A stretch of DNA of 64,000 nt from Oscillospiraceae bacterium (GTDB taxonomy: Bacteria; Bacillota; Clostridia; Oscillospirales; Oscillospiraceae): positions 1,073 through 65,072 of the forward strand of contig JAFZOI010000017.1 in the NCBI GenBank assembly GCA_017550645.1, in the 5' to 3' direction. The notes under the pieces were generated by a model. It was not told the DNA's origin. It saw only the letters and a program-made list of their open reading frames with translations, and ran no database searches. Positions 1,286 to 59,092 of this stretch are shown here, one piece after another. How positions within the stretch are numbered: the first letter of the stretch is position 1; each line of letters starts with the position of its first letter. A program made the translations under genes and the position numbers.

Positions 1286-2808
1286 GCGCGTTCCCTCGCA
1301 TTTTCGACGTTGAATCCACGCTTTCTGTGCTTTTGGCTCCTGACCGGCCAGCGCAAAACGGCGCGCGATACTTCGCGGGCGTTCCCTCCGGCGAGCGGCC
1401 AGAGATACGGTACGCCGAGGTTTTCAAGCGTAGATAGGTGCCATACGAGCAGGATGACGCCTATCACTATGCCGAAGAGCCCCAGCGCGACCGCCAGACC
1501 GGCAAATGCGAATCTGAAAAGCCGCATTGCGGCGGAGAGGTCCTGATCCGGAACGGTATAGCCCGTTATGCCCGCTATGGCGGCGATGATGACGACGGCC
1601 GGCGAGATGACCTTGGCCTCGACGGCGGACTGCCCGACTATGAGCGCGCCGATGATGCCCATCGTGTCTCCTATGTTCTGCGGCAGGCGCAGGCTCGCCT
1701 CCTGCAAGAGTTCGAGGGCGAGCATCATGCCGAGCACCTCGACGGCTGTTGAAAACGGCACCTCCTGCCTGCTCTCGATAATGGACAGCATCAGCTTTGT
1801 CGGGAGCATTTCCTGATGGTACATCGAGACGGCGACATATACTGCCGGAAGGAGCAGCGAGACGACGAGCGAGACGTATCTGACGAGCGTTATAGCGGAG
1901 GCGACGATATAGTGCCCCGCGACGTCGTCCGGGACCTTGAAAAACTCGGACAGCGTGCCGGGCAGGATAAAGCCCATGGGCAGTCCGTCTGCGAGCACGG
2001 CCGCCCTGCCCTCCAAAAGCGCGATGCAGAGCTTGTCCGGCCGCTCTGTCGACTGCACCTGCGGGAACGGAGAGCCGGGCTTCTCGACGATGTATTCCTC
2101 CAGCGAAGAGGGCGAAAGCACGCCGTCGACGTCCATGGCGGCGAGCCTCGCGCGGAGGCCCTGCACCATCGCTCCGTTCGTGAGGCCCTTAATATATAGT
2201 ATGGCAATGTTAGTCCCCGTCCTGCGCCCGACGGTCAGCTCGCATATCTTCAGATCGGAGTCGCGCATCCTGCGGCGTATAAGGCCGGTGTTCGTCCGCA
2301 GGACCTCCGTCAGACAATCGCGCGAGCCCTTGACGGCCTTTTCCGAGCGCGCTTCGCCTACGGCGCGCTTTTCCCCGCCCTTGGTCTCGAACGTCACGGC
2401 GCAGCCCTCGAGCACGACGGCGCAGAAGCCGCGAAGCACGTCTTCAACGAGCTCGTCCATGCTCTCGCGCACCTTGACCGTCGACCCTGTCACCATGCCC
2501 TCGCTCATGAGCGCGACGGCCTCGCGCAGATCGCTCACGCCGCCGAACCGCTCTGCGGAGGTCAGCGGACGCAGTACGTCGCGCGATATCGCCTCGGAGG
2601 AGACGATGCCGTCTATAAAGCACACGGTCGGCTTTATGCGCACCTCCCCGCCGAGCAGGACCTCGTGCGCCACGAAGTCGTCGCAGCCGGAGAAGACCAG
2701 CGCGATATTCTCCGCCGAGACGGGCATATCATAGCGCGGCTTCGGCTCGGGATGCGCTTTTCCGCGCGGCTTTTTAAGAAACTTCAGGATATTCAACGAT
2801 CTAAACAC
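1282..2808 (-). CDS. spore germination protein, GerAA/GerKA family
   Basis: 508-aa ORF with a soluble N-terminal domain followed by a multi-TM C-terminal region typical of GerA-family A subunits. First gene of the AA-AC-AB operon. Confidence 0.85.
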   Translation of the reverse strand: MFRSLNILKFLKKPRGKAHPEPKPRYDMPVSAENIALVFSGCDDFVAHEVLLGGEVRIKPTVCFIDGIVSSEAISRDVLRPLTSAERFGGVSDLREAVALMSEGMVTGSTVKVRESMDELVEDVLRGFCAVVLEGCAVTFETKGGEKRAVGEARSEKAVKGSRDCLTEVLRTNTGLIRRRMRDSDLKICELTVGRRTGTNIAILYIKGLTNGAMVQGLRARLAAMDVDGVLSPSSLEEYIVEKPGSPFPQVQSTERPDKLCIALLEGRAAVLADGLPMGFILPGTLSEFFKVPDDVAGHYIVASAITLVRYVSLVVSLLLPAVYVAVSMYHQEMLPTKLMLSIIESRQEVPFSTAVEVLGMMLALELLQEASLRLPQNIGDTMGIIGALIVGQSAVEAKVISPAVVIIAAIAGITGYTVPDQDLSAAMRLFRFAFAGLAVALGLFGIVIGVILLVWHLSTLENLGVPYLWPLAGGNAREVSRAVLRWPVRSQKHRKRGFNVENARERA

Positions 2809-2859
2809 TTCCCGGCGTTATTTTGTCCCGCTGCGCCCGGAATAAACCAAAGAAAATGA

Positions 2860-2888
2860 TTTACAACGGCGTTCGATTGTTCTATAAT
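2860..2888 (+). promoter_or_regulatory. sigma-A-type promoter upstream of lexA (TTTACA-17-TATAAT)
   Basis: TTTACA at 2860-2865, 17-nt spacer, TATAAT at 2883-2888, about 30 nt upstream of the lexA ATG. Confidence 0.5.
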
Positions 2889-2919
2889 TTTACATACATT
2901 TGTTTGAGCGGAGGCAGGT

Positions 2920-3504
2920 ATGAGACCACTCAGCGAAAAGCAGCGGCAAATACTCTCCTTCATAGACGCCAGCATTGCCTCGCGCGGCTATTCTCCCTCC
3001 GTGCGCGAGATATGTTCGGGCGTGCGCCTTCGCTCCCCTTCCACGGTGCAGCGGCATCTGAACATTCTTGAAAGCGAAGGATACATACGGCGCGAGAAAG
3101 GCAGTTCCCGCTCGCTGACGCTCACGGGGCGTTCGCCCGCGGGAAAGATCCCCGTTCTGGGCCGCGTGGCGGCCGGACCTCCCCTGACGGCTGAGGAGAA
3201 CATCCTCGGATACGTCGATTTCGATACGAACGAGCCGGACGCATTCTTTGCCCTGCGGATAAAGGGCGACTCCATGATCGGCGCGGGCATCCTCGACGGC
3301 GACACGGTCGTCGTGCATTCGCAGCAGACGGCCGATCCGGGAGACATCGTCATCGCCCTCATAGGCGACGAGGCGACCTGCAAGAGGCTCGCAACTAGAA
3401 AGAAAAAGGTCCTTTTGATGCCGGAAAACGACAAGTATGAGCCGATAGACGGCGCGGACGCGGTCATTTTAGGGCGCGTCGCGGCGCTTATCAGGAATTA
3501 TTGA
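2920..3504 (+). CDS. lexA: LexA repressor (S24 autopeptidase)
   Basis: 194 aa. N-terminal winged HTH (REICSGVRLRSPSTVQRHLNILESEGYI), Ala-Gly cleavage site (GRVAAGPP), catalytic GDSM serine and KRL lysine. Confidence 0.93.
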   Translation: MRPLSEKQRQILSFIDASIASRGYSPSVREICSGVRLRSPSTVQRHLNILESEGYIRREKGSSRSLTLTGRSPAGKIPVLGRVAAGPPLTAEENILGYVDFDTNEPDAFFALRIKGDSMIGAGILDGDTVVVHSQQTADPGDIVIALIGDEATCKRLATRKKKVLLMPENDKYEPIDGADAVILGRVAALIRNY

Positions 3505-3517
3505 GCGTGGTATTATA

Positions 3518-4150
3518 ATGAGCAGATTATCCGAAACGATAAAAGCGTATAAGCAGCGCGATCCCGCCGCGCGGAGCTCTCTGGAGATATTTCTCCTCTA
3601 TCCGGGCATAGGCGCGATCATCGCGCACCGCGTCGCGCACTTTTTCTATGTGCATAAGCTGCGCTTTCTCGCCCGCTGCGTCTCGCAGTGGAGCAGATTC
3701 TGCACGGGCATAGAGATACACCCCGGAGCGAAGATAGGCCGCAGGCTCGTCATCGACCACGGCATGGGCATCGTCATCGGCGAGACGGCCGAGCTCGGCG
3801 ACGACGTGCTGCTCTATCAGGGCGTGACGCTCGGCGGCACGGGCAAGGAGCACGGCAAGCGCCACCCGACCCTCGGAAACAACGTCCTCGTCGGCGCGGG
3901 CGCGAAGATACTCGGGCCCTTCACCGTCGGCGACAACGCGCGAATAGCCTCCGGCGCGGTCGTGCTCGGCGAGATACCGCCCAACGCGACGGCGGTCGGC
4001 GTCCCGGCGAAGGTCGTAAGGCTCGCCGGAGAAAAGGTCGACTACGCTTCCGAGGTCGACCAGATACACGTGCCCGACCCGGTCACGGCGGAGCTTGCCG
4101 CACTCAGGGCAAGACTCGAAGCTCTTGAAAACAAGGAGAGAGACAAATGA
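3518..4150 (+). CDS. cysE: serine O-acetyltransferase
   Basis: 210 aa. QRDPAARS N-terminal motif and left-handed beta-helix hexapeptide repeats (GIEIHPGAKIGRRLVIDHGMGIVIGETAELGDDV). Confidence 0.9.
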   Translation: MSRLSETIKAYKQRDPAARSSLEIFLLYPGIGAIIAHRVAHFFYVHKLRFLARCVSQWSRFCTGIEIHPGAKIGRRLVIDHGMGIVIGETAELGDDVLLYQGVTLGGTGKEHGKRHPTLGNNVLVGAGAKILGPFTVGDNARIASGAVVLGEIPPNATAVGVPAKVVRLAGEKVDYASEVDQIHVPDPVTAELAALRARLEALENKERDK

Positions 4151-5550
4151 AGCTCTATAACAGCGCGACACACAGCAAGGACGAATTCACTCCCAACGAG
4201 CCCGGCGTCGTCAGGATGTATACCTGCGGCCCGACCGTCTACCATTTCGCCCATATAGGCAATCTGCGCAGCTACATCATGGAGGACGTACTCGAAAAGT
4301 ACCTGCGCTGGCGCGGGCTCGACGTGCGCCGCGTCATGAACATCACAGACGTCGGCCACCTCACGAGCGACGCGGATACGGGCGAAGACAAGATGCTCAA
4401 GGGAGCCAGGCGCGAGCACAAGACCGTCCTCGAGATAGCGAAGTTCTATACAGACGCCTTCTTCGCCGACTGCGAGAAGCTCAACATCCGAAAGCCCAAC
4501 ACGGTCGTTCCCGCGACGAGCCGCATAGCGGACTTCATAGAGATGATCTCCGTCCTGCTCGAGAAGGGCTACGCCTACGTCGCGGGCGGCAACGTCTATT
4601 TCGACACCTCCAAGCTCGACGAATACTACATCTTCAACAAGCACAACGAGGACGATCTCCTCGTCGGAGCGCGCGAGGACGTCGGCCTCGACGAAGCCAA
4701 GCGCAACAAGACGGACTTCGTGCTCTGGTTCACCAAGTCCAAATTCGAGGACCAGGAGCTCAAATGGGAGTCGCCGTGGGGGCTCGGCTACCCCGGCTGG
4801 CATATCGAGTGCAGCGCCATCTCCATGCGCGAGCTCGGCGACAGGCTCGATATCCACTGCGGCGGCATAGATAACGCTTTCCCCCACCACACCAATGAAA
4901 TTGCTCAATCCGAGGCCTATTGCGGGCATAAATGGTGCAATTTCTGGTTCCACGTCCACCACCTGAACACGGAGACCGGCAAAATGAGCAAGTCCAGCGG
5001 CGAGTTTCTGACCGTCTCGCTGCTCGAGGAGAAGGGCTACGACCCGCTGGTCTACCGCTTCTTCAATCTCCAGTCGCACTACCGCAAGGCGCTCACCTTC
5101 ACGTGGGACGCTCTCGATAACGCCTCCGGCGCGTTCGATAAGCTTATAGCCCGCGTCGCGGCGATACCCGCGGGCGGCGAGGCCGACCCCGACGAGATGG
5201 AAAAGTACCGCGCCGCGTTCGACGAGGCGCTCGGCAACGACCTGAACACCTCCCTCGCCGTCACGGCGCTCTACGACGTGCTCAAGGCGGACATCTCCCC
5301 CGCCTCCAAGCGCGCGCTCATTGCCGATTTCGATACCGTCCTCGGGCTCGACCTCATAGCCAAGGCGGACGCAAAGCCCGCGGAGGAGCCCGCCGAGGCG
5401 GACGCGGAGATAGACGCCCTCGTCGCGGCGAGGACGGCGGCTCGCGCGGCGAAAAACTGGGCCGAGGCCGACCGCATCAGAGACGAGCTCAAGGCGCGCG
5501 GGATAATCCTCGAGGATACGCCGACGGGCGTCAAATGGAAAAGAGCCTGA
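4147..5550 (+). CDS. cysS: cysteine--tRNA ligase
   Basis: 467 aa. Class I signature HIGN (HFAHIGNLRSY) and KMSKS. ATGA overlap with cysE. Confidence 0.95.
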   Translation: MKLYNSATHSKDEFTPNEPGVVRMYTCGPTVYHFAHIGNLRSYIMEDVLEKYLRWRGLDVRRVMNITDVGHLTSDADTGEDKMLKGARREHKTVLEIAKFYTDAFFADCEKLNIRKPNTVVPATSRIADFIEMISVLLEKGYAYVAGGNVYFDTSKLDEYYIFNKHNEDDLLVGAREDVGLDEAKRNKTDFVLWFTKSKFEDQELKWESPWGLGYPGWHIECSAISMRELGDRLDIHCGGIDNAFPHHTNEIAQSEAYCGHKWCNFWFHVHHLNTETGKMSKSSGEFLTVSLLEEKGYDPLVYRFFNLQSHYRKALTFTWDALDNASGAFDKLIARVAAIPAGGEADPDEMEKYRAAFDEALGNDLNTSLAVTALYDVLKADISPASKRALIADFDTVLGLDLIAKADAKPAEEPAEADAEIDALVAARTAARAAKNWAEADRIRDELKARGIILEDTPTGVKWKRA

Positions 5551-5585
5551 CGGCAGACTTATAAACACCTGATTGGAGCGACATC

Positions 5586-7244
<1,659 letters not shown>

Positions 7245-7252
7245 ATGATAAT

Positions 7253-7290
7253 AAAGCTCCGGAGCGCGGCTGCGTTCCGGAGCTTTATTA
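7253..7290 (+). terminator. rho-independent terminator after glnS
   Basis: Stem aaagctccgga / tccggagcttt with a 12-nt loop, followed by a T-rich tail. Confidence 0.75.
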
Positions 7291-7303
7291 TGCGTTCATG
7301 CGG

Positions 7304-7332
7304 TTGATTATCCGCGCGGCGAGTGGTAAAAT
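7304..7332 (+). promoter_or_regulatory. promoter TTGATT-17-TAAAAT with TGn extension
   Basis: TTGATT 7304-7309, 17-nt spacer ending in TGG, TAAAAT 7327-7332. Lies about 40 nt upstream of the 7373 ATG. Confidence 0.5.
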
Positions 7333-7372
7333 ATGATCAGGAAAACAAAATAAAACATACGGAGGCGTCAAC

Positions 7373-9181
7373 ATGTACAGGATCAACTATTCTTGCCTAA
7401 ACCTCGAGCAGGTCAAGGCGGCCGTCCTGGCGGGCGGCGGTCCCGTGAGCGCGTCGGAGCTCTCCAAAGCGCTCGTTTCCAAGGAGATATGCATTGAGCT
7501 CGACAACGAGGGCGTGGCTCCCCCCTCCCTCAAGTACAGCTTCAAGTGCGAGAAGAAGCTCGTGCTGACCGAAAACGGCGGCGAGCCGGTCGAATGCGCG
7601 TACGGCGCGCTCGAGCTCGGAAAGTACGTGCTCTTTACCCACATGGTCCCCGGCACGCTGAGGGGCTATACGGCCGTGCTCGACATGGCGACCGGCAGGG
7701 CCGCGGTCACGGAGATGTGGTTCATCGACTACGAGGGCACCCCGGTCGAGAAGCTCAACCGCCCGCTCTCGGCGGACGACGTGACGAACCTCGGCTTCTT
7801 CGTCAACCGCGAGGTCGAGCGTCAGGTCTATAAGGGCCGCTTCGTCTGCGAGGGCGTTCCCGCCGCGGAGAGCCGCTTCTTCCGCTCGTTCAGGCTCGAT
7901 AACAAGATGGTCAAGTGGGACGACGATATAGGCAGGCAGCGCGTCTTCACCTACGTCACCAACTACTTCTCCACGATGGTCGAGGTCGACACGCCGGACG
8001 GCGAGGACGTCATCACCTTCCCCTCCGACTATCTGCAGCTCGACGACTGCACGTTCTTCTATGACGTGGGCGAGGTCGAGTACGCGGGCCGTCTCTCCGT
8101 CGAGGTCATAGACCTCTATACGATGAAAAAGATCGGCATGACGATGGGCATAAACGAGGACGACAAATTCGAGTTCTTCCTCTATACGGCCAAGGGCAGA
8201 TACCTCGGGCAGTTCGCCACGTTCTATGATTTCAACGACGACGGCGACGTCGCCCCGCCCTTCATGTCCAAGCGCGTGAACCCCGAGGTCAAGGGCTCGC
8301 GCTGCACCTACAGGACCAGCGTCCTCTCCGGGCAGCCGACGGCGGAGGAGATAAACGCCCTCTGCGGCAACGTCGTCGAATTCGAGCAGGCCGGCAGCAG
8401 CATGGCCTCCGGCAACAAGATGGAGTACAGCAGACAGTGCCTCGGAAAGAAGATAACCTTCCGCGACGACGACGGCTTTGAGGCCGAGCTCGACTTCTTC
8501 GCGGCCGAGCAGCTCCGCTTCCGTCTCAAGGGCGGCGACTGGGCCAAGGCCGAATACCGCGCCTTCCAGCTCGACGCCGATCTCGTCTATCTCGGCTTCC
8601 ACATCAAGGAGTCCTGCCCGCCGCGCGGCCTCATCTTCGCGCTCGACTTCACCAACGGCTGCGCGACCTGCATCGACGCGGTCATGGCGGACGGCGCCGA
8701 TCCGCACGACGTCGTCGAGAAGTACCACTTCGGCTACATGGTGACCGAGGGCGTCCCCGTCCCGCGCACGCGCCGCCACGGCTTCACGAGAGAGCTGCTC
8801 GGACGCTCGTTCACGTGGACCTACTCCAAGATGATGTCCAGCCAGCACATCTACAACTCCCCCACGTCCTATTCCTGGACGATATTCATGGGCGGCACGC
8901 CCGGCGACCCCGGATACAGGTCCGGCGGCTTTGTCTGGAGCTCGCCCTGCACCTACATCAAGCTCAGGGACGACGTCTATATCATGACGTGGGTCGAGCA
9001 GAAATGGTCCGGCAGCTTCACGACCGCGGCGATGAACCTGCGCATCATGCACGACTGCGGCTTCACGCTCGGCCTCACGCACACTGCCGACAAGCTGCTC
9101 TTCCACGCGATGGGTGCGTTCGCGCGCGACGCGGGCAGGGCCGACATGTCCGGCGTATACACGCTCAGGCATCTCGACTGA
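7373..9181 (+). CDS. hypothetical protein, possibly tandem MoaF-like/calycin-type domains
   Basis: 602-aa ORF with its own promoter and terminator and normal amino-acid composition. The C-terminal part (LLGRSFTWTYS...HIYNS...YIKLRDDVYIMTWVE) recalls MoaF C-terminal domains from memory only. Confidence 0.6.
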   Translation: MYRINYSCLNLEQVKAAVLAGGGPVSASELSKALVSKEICIELDNEGVAPPSLKYSFKCEKKLVLTENGGEPVECAYGALELGKYVLFTHMVPGTLRGYTAVLDMATGRAAVTEMWFIDYEGTPVEKLNRPLSADDVTNLGFFVNREVERQVYKGRFVCEGVPAAESRFFRSFRLDNKMVKWDDDIGRQRVFTYVTNYFSTMVEVDTPDGEDVITFPSDYLQLDDCTFFYDVGEVEYAGRLSVEVIDLYTMKKIGMTMGINEDDKFEFFLYTAKGRYLGQFATFYDFNDDGDVAPPFMSKRVNPEVKGSRCTYRTSVLSGQPTAEEINALCGNVVEFEQAGSSMASGNKMEYSRQCLGKKITFRDDDGFEAELDFFAAEQLRFRLKGGDWAKAEYRAFQLDADLVYLGFHIKESCPPRGLIFALDFTNGCATCIDAVMADGADPHDVVEKYHFGYMVTEGVPVPRTRRHGFTRELLGRSFTWTYSKMMSSQHIYNSPTSYSWTIFMGGTPGDPGYRSGGFVWSSPCTYIKLRDDVYIMTWVEQKWSGSFTTAAMNLRIMHDCGFTLGLTHTADKLLFHAMGAFARDAGRADMSGVYTLRHLD

Positions 9182-52804: not shown

Positions 52805-52841
52805 CCGCCCGGGACAAATCCCCGGGCGGTGTTGTTTTTTT
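52805..52841 (+). terminator. rho-independent terminator
   Basis: Stem ccgcccggg / cccgggcgg, followed by gtgttgttttttt. Confidence 0.8.
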
Positions 52842-52858
52842 CTGGAACCAAAAAACAC

Positions 52859-53317
52859 TTACTGTTTTATGTCAACTAAATGGTCTGCTATTCTTTTTTC
52901 ATCAGAAATGTTGCAAAGAATACCTGTCAGTTTTTCATCCCAACTTAATGCTTCATTCAAATCAGTTTTAATATTTTGCGCCAAACTGTCCGGCAAAACT
53001 TCTCCTCTTTTTATATGCAGATAGTTTTCGCTTCCCCCAAAACATTGATGGCACCAGTAGTTTCTTCTTTCCCTTAATTTATCCAGTTGATGTATTTCTT
53101 CGATTTTTATGTACTCGTGCCCTTGTTGCTTTTGATCTTTCTGGATTCTAATGAGTAGTTTTCCCATAGGGTCTTCTTCATAATCGTCAAGTCTTTCGAT
53201 CCATCCTTTGTTGCCGTCCATGTTAATAGCAGCGCATATTCCTTTCAATCGCATTTCTATAAGTTGATAATATTCAATTATCATACTGTGCATGATTCGA
53301 AAATCTTTTTCTTTCAT
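52859..53317 (-). CDS. hypothetical protein on low-GC islet, HEPN-like Rx4H motif
   Basis: 152 aa, predicted all-helical. RNYWCH (aa 85-90, nt 53048-53065) fits the HEPN R-[N/D/Q]-x3-H motif. Local G+C was hand-counted at 18/60 and 22/60 on two lines, against about 60-70% in the flanks. Confidence 0.6.
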   Translation of the reverse strand: MKEKDFRIMHSMIIEYYQLIEMRLKGICAAINMDGNKGWIERLDDYEEDPMGKLLIRIQKDQKQQGHEYIKIEEIHQLDKLRERRNYWCHQCFGGSENYLHIKRGEVLPDSLAQNIKTDLNEALSWDEKLTGILCNISDEKRIADHLVDIKQ

Positions 53318-53460
53318 TTTTTATCCCTCAGGTATCTCGCAAAACTATTATCACTATACTTCTATTTGCGGCTGTTTTCAATCAGGTCAATGAGGGTTGT
53401 TTTTCTTGCTGTGAGATGGTAAGATATCTACACGAAGCAGATTCCTCCATTTGAAGCGAA

Positions 53461-53892: not shown

Positions 53893-53936
53893 AAAAGGAG
53901 GCTCCGTCCGCGGACGGGATCTCCTTTTTCTTTTTT
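53893..53936. terminator. bidirectional terminator
   Basis: aaaaggag...ctcctttt outer stem with inner ccgtccg/cggacgg, followed by a long T-run. Confidence 0.75.
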
Positions 53937-55963
53937 CAGAGCTTATATATCCTGAGGCCGTCGAACTTCTTTATGAGCTTGAGCATGCTGTTGAAGGGCT
54001 CGTAATCCTTGCCCTTCTCCGTTTCGGGCAAAGCGTCGTAATGCGCCTTTATCTGCGCGTCGTCCGGCTCGCCGTCCATTGCCAGCTTATGGCGGCGCAT
54101 CTGCTCACGGAAGGCTTTGCGCTTTGAGTACATGCTCTCCCCTTCGGCAAGGCTCTCGCCCTCCGGGAGCGGCAGGCTCTCATATTCGTCGCCGTACCGC
54201 CAGCCCATGGAGATGTGCTCGAGCACCCATCTCTTGTGTTCCATCGGCGCGAACACCTCCGTCTGCGCCGGGGAGAACTTGACGATCTCCTCGCAGTCGA
54301 CGGGCTTATCCGTATAAAAGCAATCTATCGCGTTGAGATACGCGCTGAAGCTTTTCGCCTGATTGATGTTCGATAGCTGGTATTCAAGCGAAAGCGCTTC
54401 GAACTTCTCCTCCAGAAGCTCGGGGCTCACTTTGTCCTCGTTCCCGCCGTAGAGATAGCGCGCATTGAGCGCGACGGCGAAATCGTAAAGATGCATGAAG
54501 CTGCTGCTCGAAAGATAGGTATGCTTGCTCTTCCTGTCCGCCGCACGCACGTCAGCGACGACGGAAAGCGGCGCCGAGGACGTATCCACGATGCGCTCTA
54601 TATCCTTCCGGAAGCGCCCGCCGACCATGTCGCTGTAGGCTTTGAGCCTCGGTTCCTCCCCCGCGCAGCCGCTCTGTCTCCACTCCGCAATGCTGCGCTC
54701 GAAGTCCTCGATCTTGTCGCGCTCGGCGCTGTCGAAAAAGTAGGTCGCCCTTATCGATCCGCCGGAGAGATCGAACTCCGCGGCGGACGGGTGGAGCTCC
54801 CTGCGCGAATTGCGTCCATAGGCGATTCGGTCCCAGCACTGGAGCTCGTCGCACAGCATGAGAAGATACGCAAGAGGCTGCAGCCGCATCTTCAGCGGCA
54901 CGTCCGGCTTTTTGTTTGCTATGGCGAATTTGAAAAGGCTGTTGTGCATGAGGATGGCCGAGAGCGCGTTGACGTGGAAGGGCGTGAGCGAGGAAGCGCC
55001 CTCGGGCGTCTCAGCCAGCTCCCGGAACAGGCGCATCGCAGAAAACCATGCGTGGTCCATATAGTACCCGAAGGTCTCCGGCGAAGTCGGCTTTCGCGCT
55101 ATGGTCTCCGCGAGCTCGTTTTCCGACGCTCCGTATTCCTTCCCTATCGTCCGCGCGATATCGAACGCAAAGACGTCGACGAGCGAGGAAAACTCCCGCC
55201 CGAAAAGCTCCCCGAAGCGCCTTTTCGCAGCCTCGGGCACGTCCGTCAGGCTGTTTAAGTCGCGGTAGGCCATATAGACGGCGCCCTTTCCGCGCCGGAT
55301 ACCGTCCGTCTCGAAATACGAGAGCACCTGCTCGAACGGGAGCTCGAACGGATATCCTATGTCGTGGAAAAGCGAGGTCAGACCCCAGTATTCGAGAAAC
55401 AGACAGGCCGCTTCCCTGTCGCTCTCCGCGTTTTCCTCGTCGGGATCGAGCCCGTAAAACTCCTTGAAGGCGCGGCGGTATGCCGAGTTGCGCTCATATA
55501 CGGCAAGACCGAGCGCGAAAACGTAGACCGAATGGGAGTAGTGATCTCTGTGCTTCATCAGAAGCGAGCTGCCGTTGGACTCATACTCGGAGAGGAGCTC
55601 GACCATCTTCTTGGACTTTCCGTAGCAGCCGAAAAACATCTCGAGATAGCAGTAATAGACGTTGTAGGCGTCGTCCGCCGCGCCGGAATCGATGAACTTC
55701 TCGAGTTCTCTTTCGAGGCAAAGGCGCTCGACGTCCATCTCCATGTCGTACGGGATCTGGCGCGGCTCGGAGCTCCTGCCGGAATAGGGCGCGTCATCCC
55801 GGAAATTAAGCTTCTCACAGCGGTCGTGGATAAAGCGGAGAGCGGAGTTTTTCAGGTCCGCGCGCGCCGGGTCGAAGTGCCTGTCGGGCTGCGCGGGACC
55901 GACGTCGGCGCCGAAGCGGACGATATTCTCCTTCCGCATTTGATCAAGGAACGTATACGCCAT
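53936..55963 (-). CDS. HD-domain phosphohydrolase fused to C-terminal RyR-type domain
   Basis: 675 aa. HD motif set HRDHYSHS / LFHDIGYP / LMHNS / LCDELQCWDR. C-terminal RyR-like motifs SNINQAKSFSAYL, MEHKRWVLEHISMGWRYGD and YDALPETEKGKDY. The ATG overlaps the TIR gene stop (TAATG) with a GGGAGG SD. Confidence 0.75.
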   Translation of the reverse strand: MAYTFLDQMRKENIVRFGADVGPAQPDRHFDPARADLKNSALRFIHDRCEKLNFRDDAPYSGRSSEPRQIPYDMEMDVERLCLERELEKFIDSGAADDAYNVYYCYLEMFFGCYGKSKKMVELLSEYESNGSSLLMKHRDHYSHSVYVFALGLAVYERNSAYRRAFKEFYGLDPDEENAESDREAACLFLEYWGLTSLFHDIGYPFELPFEQVLSYFETDGIRRGKGAVYMAYRDLNSLTDVPEAAKRRFGELFGREFSSLVDVFAFDIARTIGKEYGASENELAETIARKPTSPETFGYYMDHAWFSAMRLFRELAETPEGASSLTPFHVNALSAILMHNSLFKFAIANKKPDVPLKMRLQPLAYLLMLCDELQCWDRIAYGRNSRRELHPSAAEFDLSGGSIRATYFFDSAERDKIEDFERSIAEWRQSGCAGEEPRLKAYSDMVGGRFRKDIERIVDTSSAPLSVVADVRAADRKSKHTYLSSSSFMHLYDFAVALNARYLYGGNEDKVSPELLEEKFEALSLEYQLSNINQAKSFSAYLNAIDCFYTDKPVDCEEIVKFSPAQTEVFAPMEHKRWVLEHISMGWRYGDEYESLPLPEGESLAEGESMYSKRKAFREQMRRHKLAMDGEPDDAQIKAHYDALPETEKGKDYEPFNSMLKLIKKFDGLRIYKL

Positions 55964-58566
55964 TATTCAGCCTCCCGGGTCAGCTTTATCAGCTCGTCGA
56001 GCGTCGCGTACATCTCGCCGACCGCCGCTCTGCCGTCGGAGAGCATCGCGATCGCTTTGGATCCGTCCGGGCTGAAGCCTATCTCCGTGAAGCTGAGATC
56101 GCCCGGAGCCGTGATGCGATAGAGCAGATTGCCCGTCCGGACGGAATAGACGAGCACCACGTTGCCAGAGGTCCCGCACAGCAGCATGAGCTTTGACCCG
56201 TCCGGAGAGAATTCCGACTTGTACGCGTATCCCTCGCCGCGCAGGACGTGGACCATAGTCCCGCTCTCGAGGTCGAAGACGGCGCATCTCGGGTCGTAGC
56301 CCCCGCAGGAGGCCATCAGCGAGCCGTTGAAGACCACGTCCTCGACGGAGTTATAGCAGTGCTCCGCCATACAGTATGCGTCCTTGATATTGTCCGGATC
56401 GGAGATGTCGAAGACCTCGATGAATCCGTCGTAATGCGTGCAGGCAGCGTATTTCGTCTCGGGGTCTATATACACGGCCGACTTTCTGTTCACGTTGCCG
56501 GGGAAGGTCGTATAGTAATCGCCGGCGGAATGCTTCAAGGTCAGTCCGATGAACGCGGAGGGATTGGTGTATCTCGGCGTCGTGAAAAGCTCGCCCTTAT
56601 AGCCGCTTACTATCTTCGCCGTCGCCGCCTCCGGCGTTATGAGGACGGCCGGATCGCTGCCGTAGGTATCGCTGAGAACCTTCGTCCCGTCGTTGGAGAA
56701 GGCAGAGCACGGGCGGTCGGAGAGCATCTCCCCCGTCTTTATATCGAATACGCCCGAGATCCCCCCGTAGGCGCAGACATACTTGCCGTTGGGCGAGACG
56801 GACGCCTCCGTCACGATGTTGGATTCGGCGGAAATATCCCAAAGCTTTTTCCCGCTCTTGACGTCTATCGCGCAAAGATACTCGGAGGACATGAACAGCA
56901 GCACGCTCCCGTCGTAATTGATGAGAGCCGTGCCCATAGAGAAGCCCGTACCGCTCACCGCTCCGCTCAGGATGAGCTTTCCCGTCTCGGCGTTCCAGAC
57001 GAAATACGTATTCACGGAGGAGGCGGCGACATATTTGCCGTTGCCGCTGAACATTATCGGGAAATAACCGCGCTCGGAATCGTTTTCGAGCTTGATCTCA
57101 CGCTTCCCGTCGAGGGACTTTATCTTCAGCCCCTCGCCGTAACCGGGCGAGCCCTCGACTATGCACGTCCCGTCCGGAGAGAGATCGACCATGAAGGGCT
57201 GGATGTACGACTCGACCGTCCCCGTGTTTATGGGGAGCACGTCCACGCCGTCGTCGGCCTCGTAGTCCCATATGCACAGTACCGTGCGCAGAGGGACGAG
57301 TATCCTGTGATCGTCCATGGCGAAGACCTTTTCGCCTATGTTCCATGCCATTCCGTCGGACGCGTCAAACTCTCGGTACAGCTCGCCGGTCTCGGTCTTA
57401 TAAAGGGAAACGTAGCCGTACCATGAGTCGACCGTGAAGAAATACTTGTCATCCTTGGTAAATCCGACGCTGTCGAGCATTCCGACGTCGCTGCGCGATA
57501 CGGAGTACATCAGCTTTCCGCTCTCGGCGTCTATGAGCGTCGCGGAATTGAGATTCGTGATGCCGAGCAGGTAGCGGTCGTCGTGGGAGAAGACTATCGA
57601 ATTGAACCTGCGGTTGTCGTTGTCTATGGTCTGTATCGTCTCGAAGCTGCCGGTATAGAGCGACGCCTCGAGCGCGGAATAGAGCGCCCCGTCGTTGTCC
57701 TTTCCGACCGTTTCCCGAAGTTCCGACGCCTCTGCAAGCATCTTCTGCGCGGGCAGCTTGTTGTCGCTGCTGACGGAGATGTTGGCCTGCTCGATGAGCA
57801 CCTGCATCTGATTGTTCAGCGCGATGTCCCTCTGCTCCGCTATCTCCTCGTTTTGCCGGACTATCTCCTCGTTCTGGCTCTTTATCTGCTCGTTCTGCGC
57901 GGTGATCTGCGCGTTTTTAACAAGTGCGTACGTCAGGAATCCGCCGAGCAGCACTATGACCGCGGCCGCCGCGGCGATCGCCGTCCTGACTCTTTTTCTT
58001 CTCGCGCGCTGACGCAGGGCGTCGTAGCTGACGTTCAGGATAGGCGCGAGAAGGCGCAGCTTCTCCCGCCCGAGCTTCTTCAGGGATTCCGAGAGGGTCG
58101 AGCCTCTGACGTCGCCCGCCAGCGGCTCTATCTCGACCATTCTCCCCTCCTGCTGCACGAAGCGCAGCTGCGCGGGGAAGGAATCCTCCGGCTCGCCGTT
58201 CGCGAGAACGGTCAGGATATGGTCGCGCCTGCCTATCGAAATGAAATACTCGAGCTCGGTCATGCACCATTTCGACTGAAGGTAATCCGGAGAGCATACG
58301 GCGATGAGCCACTCGGAATTATCCAGAGCGGCCTTGATGTCGCCTCCGAGGTCGGTCGAAAGCGGCAGTTCCTCCTGATCGCGGAAGACCCTGCCCATTT
58401 TCCTGCGGCCGGAGGAGGCCTTGACGTCCTTCGGGATGGAATAGTTTTCGATGAGCGAATGGAGCTTTTTCGCTATCGCTTCGTCGGGAAGCTTATGCCG
58501 GTAAGAAATAAAGGCCGTATATGCGTATTGATCCACAGTCTTCACCCCAAACGGTTTTTTATTCAT
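55963..58566 (-). CDS. TIR domain - single TM - coiled coil - WD40/PD40-like beta-propeller protein
   Basis: 867 aa. TIR_2-like N-terminus (AFISYRH, VFRDQEEL, SKWCMTELEYF). TM TAIAAAAAVIVLLGGFLTYALV is preceded by RQRARRKRVR. More than 10 blades of the FSPDGSK/FSGNGKY/VSPNGKY type. The 5' end is uncertain: no SD precedes the first ATG, and an in-frame GTG at 58536 has GGGGTGA upstream. Confidence 0.8.
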   Translation of the reverse strand: MNKKPFGVKTVDQYAYTAFISYRHKLPDEAIAKKLHSLIENYSIPKDVKASSGRRKMGRVFRDQEELPLSTDLGGDIKAALDNSEWLIAVCSPDYLQSKWCMTELEYFISIGRRDHILTVLANGEPEDSFPAQLRFVQQEGRMVEIEPLAGDVRGSTLSESLKKLGREKLRLLAPILNVSYDALRQRARRKRVRTAIAAAAAVIVLLGGFLTYALVKNAQITAQNEQIKSQNEEIVRQNEEIAEQRDIALNNQMQVLIEQANISVSSDNKLPAQKMLAEASELRETVGKDNDGALYSALEASLYTGSFETIQTIDNDNRRFNSIVFSHDDRYLLGITNLNSATLIDAESGKLMYSVSRSDVGMLDSVGFTKDDKYFFTVDSWYGYVSLYKTETGELYREFDASDGMAWNIGEKVFAMDDHRILVPLRTVLCIWDYEADDGVDVLPINTGTVESYIQPFMVDLSPDGTCIVEGSPGYGEGLKIKSLDGKREIKLENDSERGYFPIMFSGNGKYVAASSVNTYFVWNAETGKLILSGAVSGTGFSMGTALINYDGSVLLFMSSEYLCAIDVKSGKKLWDISAESNIVTEASVSPNGKYVCAYGGISGVFDIKTGEMLSDRPCSAFSNDGTKVLSDTYGSDPAVLITPEAATAKIVSGYKGELFTTPRYTNPSAFIGLTLKHSAGDYYTTFPGNVNRKSAVYIDPETKYAACTHYDGFIEVFDISDPDNIKDAYCMAEHCYNSVEDVVFNGSLMASCGGYDPRCAVFDLESGTMVHVLRGEGYAYKSEFSPDGSKLMLLCGTSGNVVLVYSVRTGNLLYRITAPGDLSFTEIGFSPDGSKAIAMLSDGRAAVGEMYATLDELIKLTREAE

Positions 58567-58630
58567 AATAGCACACGGGTCTATTTATGACAATACATGC
58601 CGGAAAGCGGCTCAAAAGCGCCGCCGCAGG

Positions 58631-58659
58631 TTGAATTTCATAAAGAAATGATGTATGAT
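58631..58659 (+). promoter_or_regulatory. promoter TTGAAT-17-TATGAT
   Basis: TTGAAT 58631-58636, 17-nt spacer, TATGAT 58654-58659. This argues that the downstream CDS starts at 58685, not 58655. Confidence 0.45.
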
Positions 58660-58684
58660 AAAAGAAAAAACACGGAGGTCAGCC

Positions 58685-59092
58685 ATGATCATCAACGGAA
58701 CACTCTACTATAAGGACGTCATCACCATCGAGGATAAGTTCGAGGGCTTCGACACCTCGAAAAAGGGCGCGGCTTTCGATCCCGACGTCGCCGATTCGAT
58801 CGCGTTCGCGCTCTACGGCAAGACCGTCTTCAACGAGATCACAAAGCTCAGCAAGGGCGTGCCCCTCATCGACCTCGAGATCGAGTGCGGCGGCAAGAAG
58901 ACCCGCGTCGTCAGGCAGCCGAGATACGTCGCCATGGAGAGCTACGGCGCAGGCCGCCCGTCTCCCGAGCAGTGGAACATCCAGGACGGCACGCCGAAGC
59001 TCCAGACCCTGACAGGCGACGAGTTCTTCAAGCGCGTCAAGGACTGCATCGACATGGATTACGAGGAGTTCGCAGCCTTCTGCAAGGGCTGA
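58685..59092 (+). CDS. hypothetical protein resembling an SbcC/Rad50 N-terminal segment without Walker A
   Basis: 135 aa from MIINGTLYY (GGAGG SD 6 nt upstream). ADSIAFALYGKT, KTRVVRQPRY and MDYEEFAAF recall the AAA_23 N-terminal lobe, but no GxxGxGK(S/T) motif is present. Confidence 0.5.
   Translation: MIINGTLYYKDVITIEDKFEGFDTSKKGAAFDPDVADSIAFALYGKTVFNEITKLSKGVPLIDLEIECGGKKTRVVRQPRYVAMESYGAGRPSPEQWNIQDGTPKLQTLTGDEFFKRVKDCIDMDYEEFAAFCKG

Follow-up and report, generated by a model that had tools for sequence, protein, structure and literature searches.

A 64,000-nucleotide stretch of a rumen-type Oscillospiraceae genome (Clostridia; contig JAFZOI010000017.1; the whole stretch is referred to here as the window) carries on its minus strand two adjoining genes, the first encoding a membrane receptor with a TIR domain and the second a protein with a ryanodine-receptor-type (RyR) domain. 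Gene 1 (55963-58566) codes for 867 amino acids as called and combines, according to the list of open reading frames (ORFs) and Pfam, a TIR domain, a transmembrane (TM) helix, a coiled-coil stalk and a beta-propeller. Gene 2 (53936-55963, 675 amino acids in the ORF list) joins an all-alpha, HD-like N-terminal region to a C-terminal RyR domain of the Repeat12 (R12) type. The gene 2 family is associated with TIR genes strongly, in multiple lineages and in a co-directional manner, the association being with TIR domains generally and not with the TIR-propeller family. Judging from sequence comparison, the two genes are probably linked through a nucleotide made by the TIR domain and read by the RyR domain.

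The stop codon of gene 1 (55965-55963) overlaps the ATG of gene 2 (55963-55961) by one base, and the translational-coupling junction (55961-55976, minus strand), which reads GGGAGG-ctgaa-TAATG in the sequence, places the Shine-Dalgarno sequence GGGAGG (55976-55971) 7 nt 5' of that ATG. An intrinsic-terminator hairpin, G+C-rich and with T-runs on both strands (53895-53930; sequence and terminator scan), lies 3' of gene 2 and is common to the convergent thioesterase gene. The two genes are read as a two-gene operon because of the stop/start overlap with its Shine-Dalgarno sequence and the terminator hairpin after gene 2. The best promoter-like site found by consensus scan, TTGTCA-17-(TG)TATTAT (58565-58593, minus strand), is a consensus match only, with 10 of 12 positions matching and an extended -10 (TGcTATTAT); the called ATG of gene 1 at 58566 sits within its -10 element. 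Ten codons 3' of that ATG, the GTG at 58536 has the Shine-Dalgarno sequence GGGGTGA, and since the promoter-like site overlaps the called ATG and the homologues of gene 1 are 855-857 amino acids long, this GTG is probably the true start, giving 857 amino acids. Gene 1 residue numbers here follow the 867-amino-acid ORF starting at 58566. The G+C content of the pair is 0.58-0.59 against 0.60 across the window, and two contigs of related Oscillospiraceae metagenome-assembled genomes (MAGs) match the entire stretch collinearly at 79-80% nucleotide identity, with the pair in synteny. Composition and synteny together indicate that the pair is native and vertically inherited within the clade, and they rule out a recent import. 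A preliminary description of this DNA had given the same two reading frames with their TAATG overlap and GGGAGG sequence, and had called the composition native-like; these particulars were found exactly as claimed.

The N-terminal domain of gene 1 (residues 19-137; 58156-58512, minus strand) is a cytoplasmic TIR_2 domain, which exceeds the curated cut-offs of both Pfam models concerned, with 44.5 bits for TIR_2 (cut-off 28) and 35.9 bits for TIR (cut-off 21.3). The solved structures nearest to it are those of enzymatic TIRs, namely flax L6, AtTIR, the CRISPR-associated Cat1 and RPP1/ROQ1/RUN1. Its segment SKWCMTEL aligns without gaps with SKWCLMEL of flax L6 and SSWCLDEL of AtTIR, and E104 (codon 58255-58257) aligns with the Glu of SDWCWDELE in Cat1 too, the shared motif being SxWCxxEL in the alpha-C helix (WxxxE). 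E104 thus occupies the catalytic-Glu position by alignment to L6, AtTIR and Cat1, and 90 of 90 gene 1 homologues, down to 41% identity, keep W100, C101 and E104 without exception. Its sequence predicts that the gene 1 TIR domain is catalytically competent.

The TIR domain is followed by a single TM helix (residues about 193-217; 57916-57990, minus strand; Kyte-Doolittle maximum 2.28), whose flanks carry charges of +6 on the N side and -2 on the C side. As this is the sole hydrophobic segment, the flank charges put the TIR domain inside, and gene 1 is predicted to be a type-II single-pass protein with its TIR cytoplasmic (N-in) and its stalk and propeller outside (C-out). The extracytoplasmic part comprises a QNE-rich coiled-coil stalk (residues about 218-300; 57667-57915, minus strand), read from the sequence, and a beta-propeller region with FSPDG/PD40-type blades (residues about 301-851; 56014-57666, minus strand). 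Many beta-propeller families in Pfam match residues about 300-851, PQQ_2 above its cut-off. The TIR_2-type domain, the Glu at the catalytic WCxxE position and the order of TIR inside, one TM helix, coiled coil and propeller outside had all been put forward before, and the Pfam scores, the alignment columns, the hydropathy and the flank charges agree with them. Over 89 homologues the mean identity is 55% in the propeller and 67% in the TIR domain, the propeller being less conserved but not hypervariable. The 521 gene 1 homologues, where they bear any name, are called 'TIR domain-containing protein'.

No TM segment was found in the gene 2 protein, which is consequently taken to be soluble. Its family numbers more than 2000 close homologues, every one of them annotated as hypothetical, and forms 1241 clusters at 50% identity (E<=1e-3). 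Homologues that are 56-62% identical occur across Lachnospiraceae, Oscillospiraceae, Erysipelotrichia, Christensenellales and Chloroflexi MAGs, nearly all from rumen or gut. The AF2 model of the protein has a pLDDT of 89.8 and a pTM of 0.93, a second AF2 model has a pLDDT of 88.2, and both are confident. The N-terminal region of roughly 540 amino acids consists of an HD-like core, a small alpha/beta insert and a helical linker, and the RyR domain takes up residues about 540-675 (53939-54346, minus strand). On its own, gene 2 matches the Pfam RyR model below the cut-off (21.7 against 27.4), while 21 of 46 diverse family members are matched, the best at E 1.2e-12. When a family profile of the C-terminal 140 residues was run against the PDB, all 51 matches were RyR-domain chains, among them RyR2 (8.7e-9), the RyR3 Repeat12 crystal structure (2e-7) and the bacterial 'putative ryanodine receptor' entries 6uag and 3nrt (5e-4 to 9e-4). 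By these matches and its invariant residues, the C-terminal domain is a true member of PF02026, firmly so at the level of the family; the earlier assignment of an RyR domain therefore stands for the family, while gene 2 taken alone stays below the Pfam cut-off. No match to gene 2 was found in the PADLOC, NCBIfam and PHROGs libraries.

The RyR domain has recently acquired a link with TIR-made signals, since two 2026 preprints describe phage RyR-domain proteins that bind or cleave the 2'/3' cyclic ADP-ribose (cADPR) signals of Thoeris (PMC13232231; 10.64898/2026.06.04.730250). RyDEP (gp78 of mycobacteriophage DyoEdafos) is a glycosidase that converts 2'/3'cADPR into ADP-ribose (ADPR), in which H75 and D117 form the catalytic dyad, W78 stacks on the adenine and H100 lies on the phosphates. 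Binding of the signals was seen for six of eight tested RyDEP homologues, two of them characterised as nanomolar binders, and cleavage for none of the eight. RyR Tad (gp68 of Pectobacterium phage CB1) binds 3'cADPR, 2'cADPR and cADPR through H129/W132, K147/H154 and K170/D171. In gene 2, H576-x-x-W579 and H625 are invariant and K652-D653 nearly so (19 family sequences, down to 28% identity), and by motif and spacing, not by structural superposition, H576, W579, H625 and K652-D653 correspond to H75, W78, H100 and D117 of RyDEP and to H129, W132, H154 and K170-D171 of RyR Tad. In the short members of the gene 2 family the Asp follows the second His at a spacing of 18, against 17 in the phage proteins. 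The gene 2 RyR domain therefore has the HxxW, the second His and the KD, and the residues of RyR Tad equivalent to H576/W579, H625 and K652/D653 are needed for its binding of 3'cADPR. A tblastn search of 50,697 phage records with the gene 2 RyR region gave one match, to an unverified faecal scaffold, and did not reach DyoEdafos or CB1. Neither of the two preprints (PMC13232231; 10.64898/2026.06.04.730250) discusses host RyR-domain proteins beside TIR genes, or states what function RyR-domain proteins have in cells.

The HD-like core of gene 2 (residues about 130-390; 54794-55576, minus strand) is defined by invariant His and Asp columns. H138/H141/H144, H200-D201 (within LFHDIGYP), D303-H304, H340 and D372 are invariant or nearly so in the family, and an H…HD…D set of the metal-ligand kind (H144, H200-D201, D372), recognised by inspection only, is kept down to 27% identity. 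The LFHDIG segment resembles the LLHDIGK motif of HD proteins. The HD families of Pfam and NCBIfam gave no match to gene 2, to 46 relatives or to the excised motif segments at E<=10, and no HD match came from PDB sequence and profile searches with the HD region. Alignment of the family profile by hhalign to the E. coli HD protein YfbR also gave no match, although a single-sequence target makes this a weak test. Foldseek found no significant match for the full-length model in PDB and BFVD, returning helical membrane and tape-measure proteins only, and none for the trimmed core either. The enzyme folds that rose slightly above noise were the HD-GYP protein Bd1817 (probability 0.44) and the phosphodiesterase (PDE) PDE9A (probability up to 0.33, TM-score 0.30), with all enzyme matches at a probability of at most 0.44, E>=0.2 and TM-scores of at most 0.31. 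The core is accordingly HD-like by motif, and its membership of the HD superfamily is unproven: of the complete HD motif set described earlier, the invariant residues exist, and neither hidden Markov models (HMMs) nor the PDB nor Foldseek supports the name, HMM failure for HD being among the outcomes listed there as refuting. Nine distant relatives of the core (P0299, P0301, P0309, P0344, P0357, P0365, P0376, P0378 and P0390), of 915-1070 amino acids, have extra N- or C-terminal regions without Pfam match and seemingly lack RyR, so the HD-like core may be combined with other sensor modules in distant relatives. In the 824-residue family representative P0333, a weak DprA/SLOG-like segment (residues 673-725, E 0.007) comes after RyR, a possible HD-like/RyR/SLOG-like fusion that would tie the family to the SLOG-SLATT-like neighbour described below.

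An iterated TIR profile was run against the ORFs in all six frames of 80 genome loci that encode gene 2 homologues; 51 of these loci extend 4 kb or more on each side of the gene 2 homologue and are here called well flanked. At least one TIR ORF was found within 8 kb of the gene 2 homologue in 52 of the 80 loci, and a TIR ORF is present in 39 of the 51 well-flanked ones (76%). The strand is shared with the gene 2 homologue by 62 of 66 TIR ORFs, and every TIR ORF belongs to the gene cluster of the gene 2 homologue, being either directly adjacent or set apart by no more than a giant leucine-rich-repeat (LRR) protein. The partner classes comprise TIR_2-TM-Pro/Thr linker-LRR_4 proteins of about 380 amino acids, short TIR_2-TM proteins without the catalytic-position Glu, giant TM-LRR proteins of 1000-1290 amino acids, proteins with LRR_5, two TIR_2 domains and Sel1 but no TM segment, and TIR-TM-propeller proteins about 29% identical to gene 1. 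As the partner TIRs carry differing sensor parts, the constant feature is a TIR domain together with the RyR protein. The catalytic-position Glu is kept in 63 of the 81 TIR domains beside gene 2 homologues. A strict two-gene family of TIR-propeller and HD-RyR proteins is ruled out, for a propeller-type TIR occurs in only about 10 of the 80 gene 2 loci and gene-1-type TIRs are mostly solo. The co-occurrence that had been expected beyond this genome thus holds for TIR genes generally and not for the TIR-propeller family.

A gene for a SLOG-SLATT-like protein lies directly downstream of the gene 2 homologue in 21 of the 51 well-flanked loci, and it shares the locus with both a TIR gene and the gene 2 homologue in 18 of the 51. 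DUF4231, a member of the SLATT clan in Pfam, was found in 17 of 22 of these neighbours and the SLOG family YAcAr in 9 of 22. Around gene-1-type TIR genes, no families other than the HD-RyR and SLOG-SLATT-like ones recur as neighbours.

Several arrangements in these loci are of note in themselves. The TIR_2-TM class that lacks the Glu, roughly 275 amino acids long, has D-x-x-x-K-S-x-x-L in place of S-x-x-C-x-x-E, and its ORFs (loci L036, L039, L045, L048, L054, L063, L065, L066, L068, L074, L077 and L078) always lie directly upstream of a Glu-bearing TIR-TM-LRR gene, in an arrangement that resembles a helper/sensor or adaptor/enzyme TIR pair. In L048, L054 (about 5600-7900), L010, L020 and L074, genes for a Ser/Thr protein kinase-TM-LRR protein and a small helix-turn-helix protein lie directly upstream of the gene 2 homologue, so that the neighbourhood holds a second type of surface LRR receptor. 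Locus L085 (MT836912.1, an unverified 'Bacteriophage sp.' record from human faeces) encodes at 2081-6509 a 774-residue HD-like/RyR homologue whose stop overlaps (ATGA) a downstream gene for a 703-residue soluble TIR protein with three C-terminal repeats of roughly 130 residues. Upstream, a gene encodes a 511-residue protein that has TM segments at its C-terminal end, and positions 7093-8046 hold a Mu-F-like head-morphogenesis gene; from this locus, the pair may travel on phages or prophages.

We propose, with a confidence that falls a little short of even, that the pair is a Thoeris-like signalling module based on an ADPR nucleotide, with a TIR of the receptor type and, as receiver, a host protein that has an RyR domain. 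Binding of an outside ligand to the gene 1 ectodomain, or its clustering, would activate the cytoplasmic TIR, which would turn NAD+ into a nucleotide of the cyclic-ADPR type. The RyR (R12) domain of the co-translated gene 2 protein would recognise this nucleotide, as suggested by the retained HxxW…H…KD residues and by the phage RyR proteins that bind or cleave 2'/3'cADPR. The HD-like domain would supply the output by catalysis, as a metal-dependent phosphohydrolase with nucleotides or nucleic acids as substrates. Gene 2 would be the effector of a two-gene system, whose output would serve either defence against phages or a physiological reaction to some cue from outside. That gene 2 is an effector made of an RyR sensor and an HD-like catalytic output is plausible, if somewhat doubtful; it is favoured because the Thoeris pattern would be followed and because no second candidate effector was found besides gene 2 among the proteins of the 64-kb window. 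The SLATT (DUF4231)/SLOG (YAcAr)-like genes after gene 2 homologues, which recall the TIR and SLATT pair of type VII Thoeris, also speak for such a module.

A number of observations weigh against this proposal. No TIR gene was found near the gene 2 homologue in 12 of the 51 well-flanked loci, where the neighbours are unrelated housekeeping genes, and from the side of gene 1, of 80 metagenomic loci with gene-1-type TIR genes only 7 have a gene 2 relative within 5 kb, most being without it. On three long contigs, too, none was found within 6 kb of the gene 1 homologue (72, 56 and 51% identity). Neither HMM nor fold searches detected an HD, PDE or nuclease family in gene 2, which leaves a catalytic output unproven. 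Where a SLOG-SLATT-like protein is present it already supplies an effector, and a regulator role then fits gene 2 better. Finally, PADLOC has no match for gene 2, and the gene 2 loci lie among housekeeping genes and not in defence islands. The idea with which the preliminary description began, of an undescribed and functionally linked pair in which gene 2 receives or degrades the TIR signal, is supported at its core by the TIR adjacency and the RyR ligand residues, more strongly than the sequence alone had allowed, but not in its HD arm or its defence role.

The strongest alternative, a serious one that we nevertheless hold to be rather unlikely, is that gene 2 terminates or salvages the signal: its RyR domain would be a glycosidase that linearises 2'/3'cADPR and its HD-like domain would hydrolyse the resulting ADPR-type nucleotide. 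The role of gene 2 would then be to tune the threshold of signalling or its duration, or to recycle cADPR isomers, which are very stable, and the actual output would come from the TIR itself depleting NAD+ or from an effector encoded elsewhere, for example the SLOG-SLATT-like protein of other genomes. H576 and D653, the counterparts of the RyDEP catalytic dyad, are invariant or nearly so, which would suit a glycosidase, yet catalysis was seen in just one of the nine phage RyR-domain proteins tested, and RyR Tad uses the same residues for binding alone. The loci in which TIR, gene 2 homologue and SLOG-SLATT-like effector co-occur, with SLATT directly after gene 2, speak for a terminator, as does the apparent fusion in P0333 with its weak E-values; on the other side, two-gene loci like that of the window would be left without an effector unless the TIR itself is one. 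The very high conservation of gene 2 (56-62% identity across Lachnospiraceae, Oscillospiraceae, Erysipelotrichia and Chloroflexi MAGs), its frequent solo occurrence amid housekeeping genes and the gene-1-type TIR genes that mostly work without it are also as expected of such an enzyme, whereas a region of roughly 540 amino acids N-terminal to the RyR domain is large for simple clean-up.

With no nucleotide signal at all, a TIR domain that acts without catalysis, as an oligomerisation or adaptor module like those of animal Toll-like receptors (TLRs), could recruit the gene 2 protein by direct contact. The TLR-like topology of gene 1 would fit this, and the Glu-less short TIR-TM proteins beside gene 2 homologues could be adaptors of this kind. 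We consider it very unlikely for gene 1, whose family keeps the Glu and the WC motif invariant, whose nearest TIRs are the enzymatic plant and CRISPR-associated ones, and whose partner bears an RyR domain of the nucleotide-binding type with its ligand residues apparently intact.

Few TIR genes are expected per genome, and adjacency in 39 of 51 loci is far above that expectation, which was not itself measured. That unrelated genes came to be adjacent and co-transcribed by chance in this lineage is the most improbable account: it could call on the solo occurrence of close TIR-propeller relatives (51-72% identity), the partner seen in only 7 of 80 gene-1-type loci and the housekeeping surroundings, but it is at odds with TIR genes of several unrelated architectures in co-directional clusters across several phyla, with a stop/start overlap that is found in the window and, independently, in L085, and with the absence of any recurrent neighbours of gene-1-type TIR genes other than HD-RyR and SLOG-SLATT.

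The proposed module resembles Thoeris in that a gene for a Glu-bearing TIR adjoins one whose product combines a domain of the nucleotide-binding kind with a putative catalytic one, and in that related loci add a SLOG/SLATT-type protein. It differs in that the TIR is a membrane receptor with a propeller outside (LRR in relatives) whereas the Thoeris sensor is cytoplasmic, in that the partner would sense by an RyR domain, and in lacking both defence islands and a PADLOC match for gene 2. PADLOC gave only weak ThsB-like and SAVED_TIR matches for the gene 1 TIR, the best at 1.1e-7, and the pair does not belong to the ThsA/ThsB or other defence-system models in that library. The pair would thus work like Thoeris by analogy, and the features examined do not make it a member. 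A 2025 preprint surveying TIR systems in defence islands names Thoeris types up to XI, and describes type VII as a TIR with a SLATT effector whose signal is canonical cADPR. RyR, PF02026, WD40 and LRR do not appear in the main text and four supplementary tables of that survey, two of the tables being available in part. As the loci studied here sit among housekeeping genes, such a system would be missed by discovery based on defence islands. No earlier description of a TIR with an HD-like/RyR protein was found in the literature covered, which did not extend to the 2015 NAR article by Burroughs et al.; that article, which reportedly defined SLOG and SLATT, may mention the neighbourhood.

With the phage proteins RyDEP and RyR Tad, gene 2 shares PF02026 and the HxxW…H…KD ligand residues. 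The phage proteins are small and serve to destroy or sequester the signals of the host, whereas gene 2 is host-encoded, lies in cis with a TIR gene and is fused to its long N-terminal region. Animal TLRs resemble gene 1 in being single-pass proteins with a repeat-domain sensor outside (LRR in many relatives) and a TIR inside; in gene 1 the order is inverted, with TIR N-terminal and sensor C-terminal in a type II protein, the ectodomain is a beta-propeller, and the TIR carries the enzymatic Glu, its nearest counterparts being enzymatic TIRs of plants and bacteria. Gene 1 does not have the TLR architecture of N-terminal LRR, TM and C-terminal TIR, the logic would be analogous only, and nothing suggests common descent. 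The HD-superfamily phosphohydrolases (HD-GYP, class I PDE) have an all-alpha region with conserved H…HD…H…D, as does gene 2, but no HD HMM matches 46 members of its family and the Foldseek values are as low as given above. If gene 2 were a terminator, it would parallel the ring nucleases and signal-degrading regulators of type III CRISPR and CBASS, in which a cis-encoded enzyme degrades the system's own messenger; there the messenger is a cyclic oligoadenylate, unlike the ADPR-based one supposed for the pair, and the folds are unrelated.

The preliminary description had presented the genes as a candidate signalling or defence pair, and a role in defence is not established. The 146 non-core neighbours of the gene 2 loci are mostly transporters and metabolic enzymes, with one Cas9 and a few ATPase cross-hits, which rules out a defence-island setting. 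Against a classic arms-race defence island speak the housekeeping surroundings and the conservation of the ectodomain; in favour of defence are the phage-like scaffold and the parallels with Thoeris.

TIR-made ADPR nucleotides are an immune currency common to bacteria, plants and animals, and the pair gives a cellular context to the newly discovered link between RyR and cADPR. With a host RyR-domain family of 1241 clusters beside TIR genes, a testable cellular role for the RyR fold is at hand, and this cellular family is a likely origin of the phage RyR proteins. If the TIR receptors signal, bacteria would have TIR pathways that read the cell exterior, as no known Thoeris type does. In a wider view, which is more speculative and on the doubtful side, surface-receptor TIRs of gut and rumen Firmicutes, with LRR or propeller outside, would turn an extracellular cue into a cADPR-type signal, of which the host RyR protein would be the native receiver or terminator, making up a transmembrane bacterial TIR pathway with TLR-like logic; that protein would be the source of the phage anti-Thoeris RyR fold and a prokaryotic precedent for cADPR acting on R12 of ryanodine receptors.

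The surroundings of the pair in the window comprise a TRAP transporter, a PucR regulator and oxidoreductases (ORF list and Pfam). Divergent from gene 1, a 145-amino-acid ORF on the plus strand (58655-59092) has no family match; its 'SIAFALYGKT … KTRVVRQPRY' recalls the N-terminus of an SbcC/Rad50-type ATPase, with a Walker A motif that is not intact, and it may be a gene remnant. On the other side of the pair lies a 616-bp segment (52839-53454) of 35% G+C within a 60% G+C genome. It contains an ORF of 152 amino acids (52859-53317, minus strand) with its own promoter-like site and terminator, which matches no family in any library and has an Rx4H motif (RNYWCH) recalling HEPN toxins. In the related MAG contig L001 this position is taken by a different segment, of 1.5 kb and with a gene for a MatE-like membrane protein, which points to an indel hotspot next to the pair.

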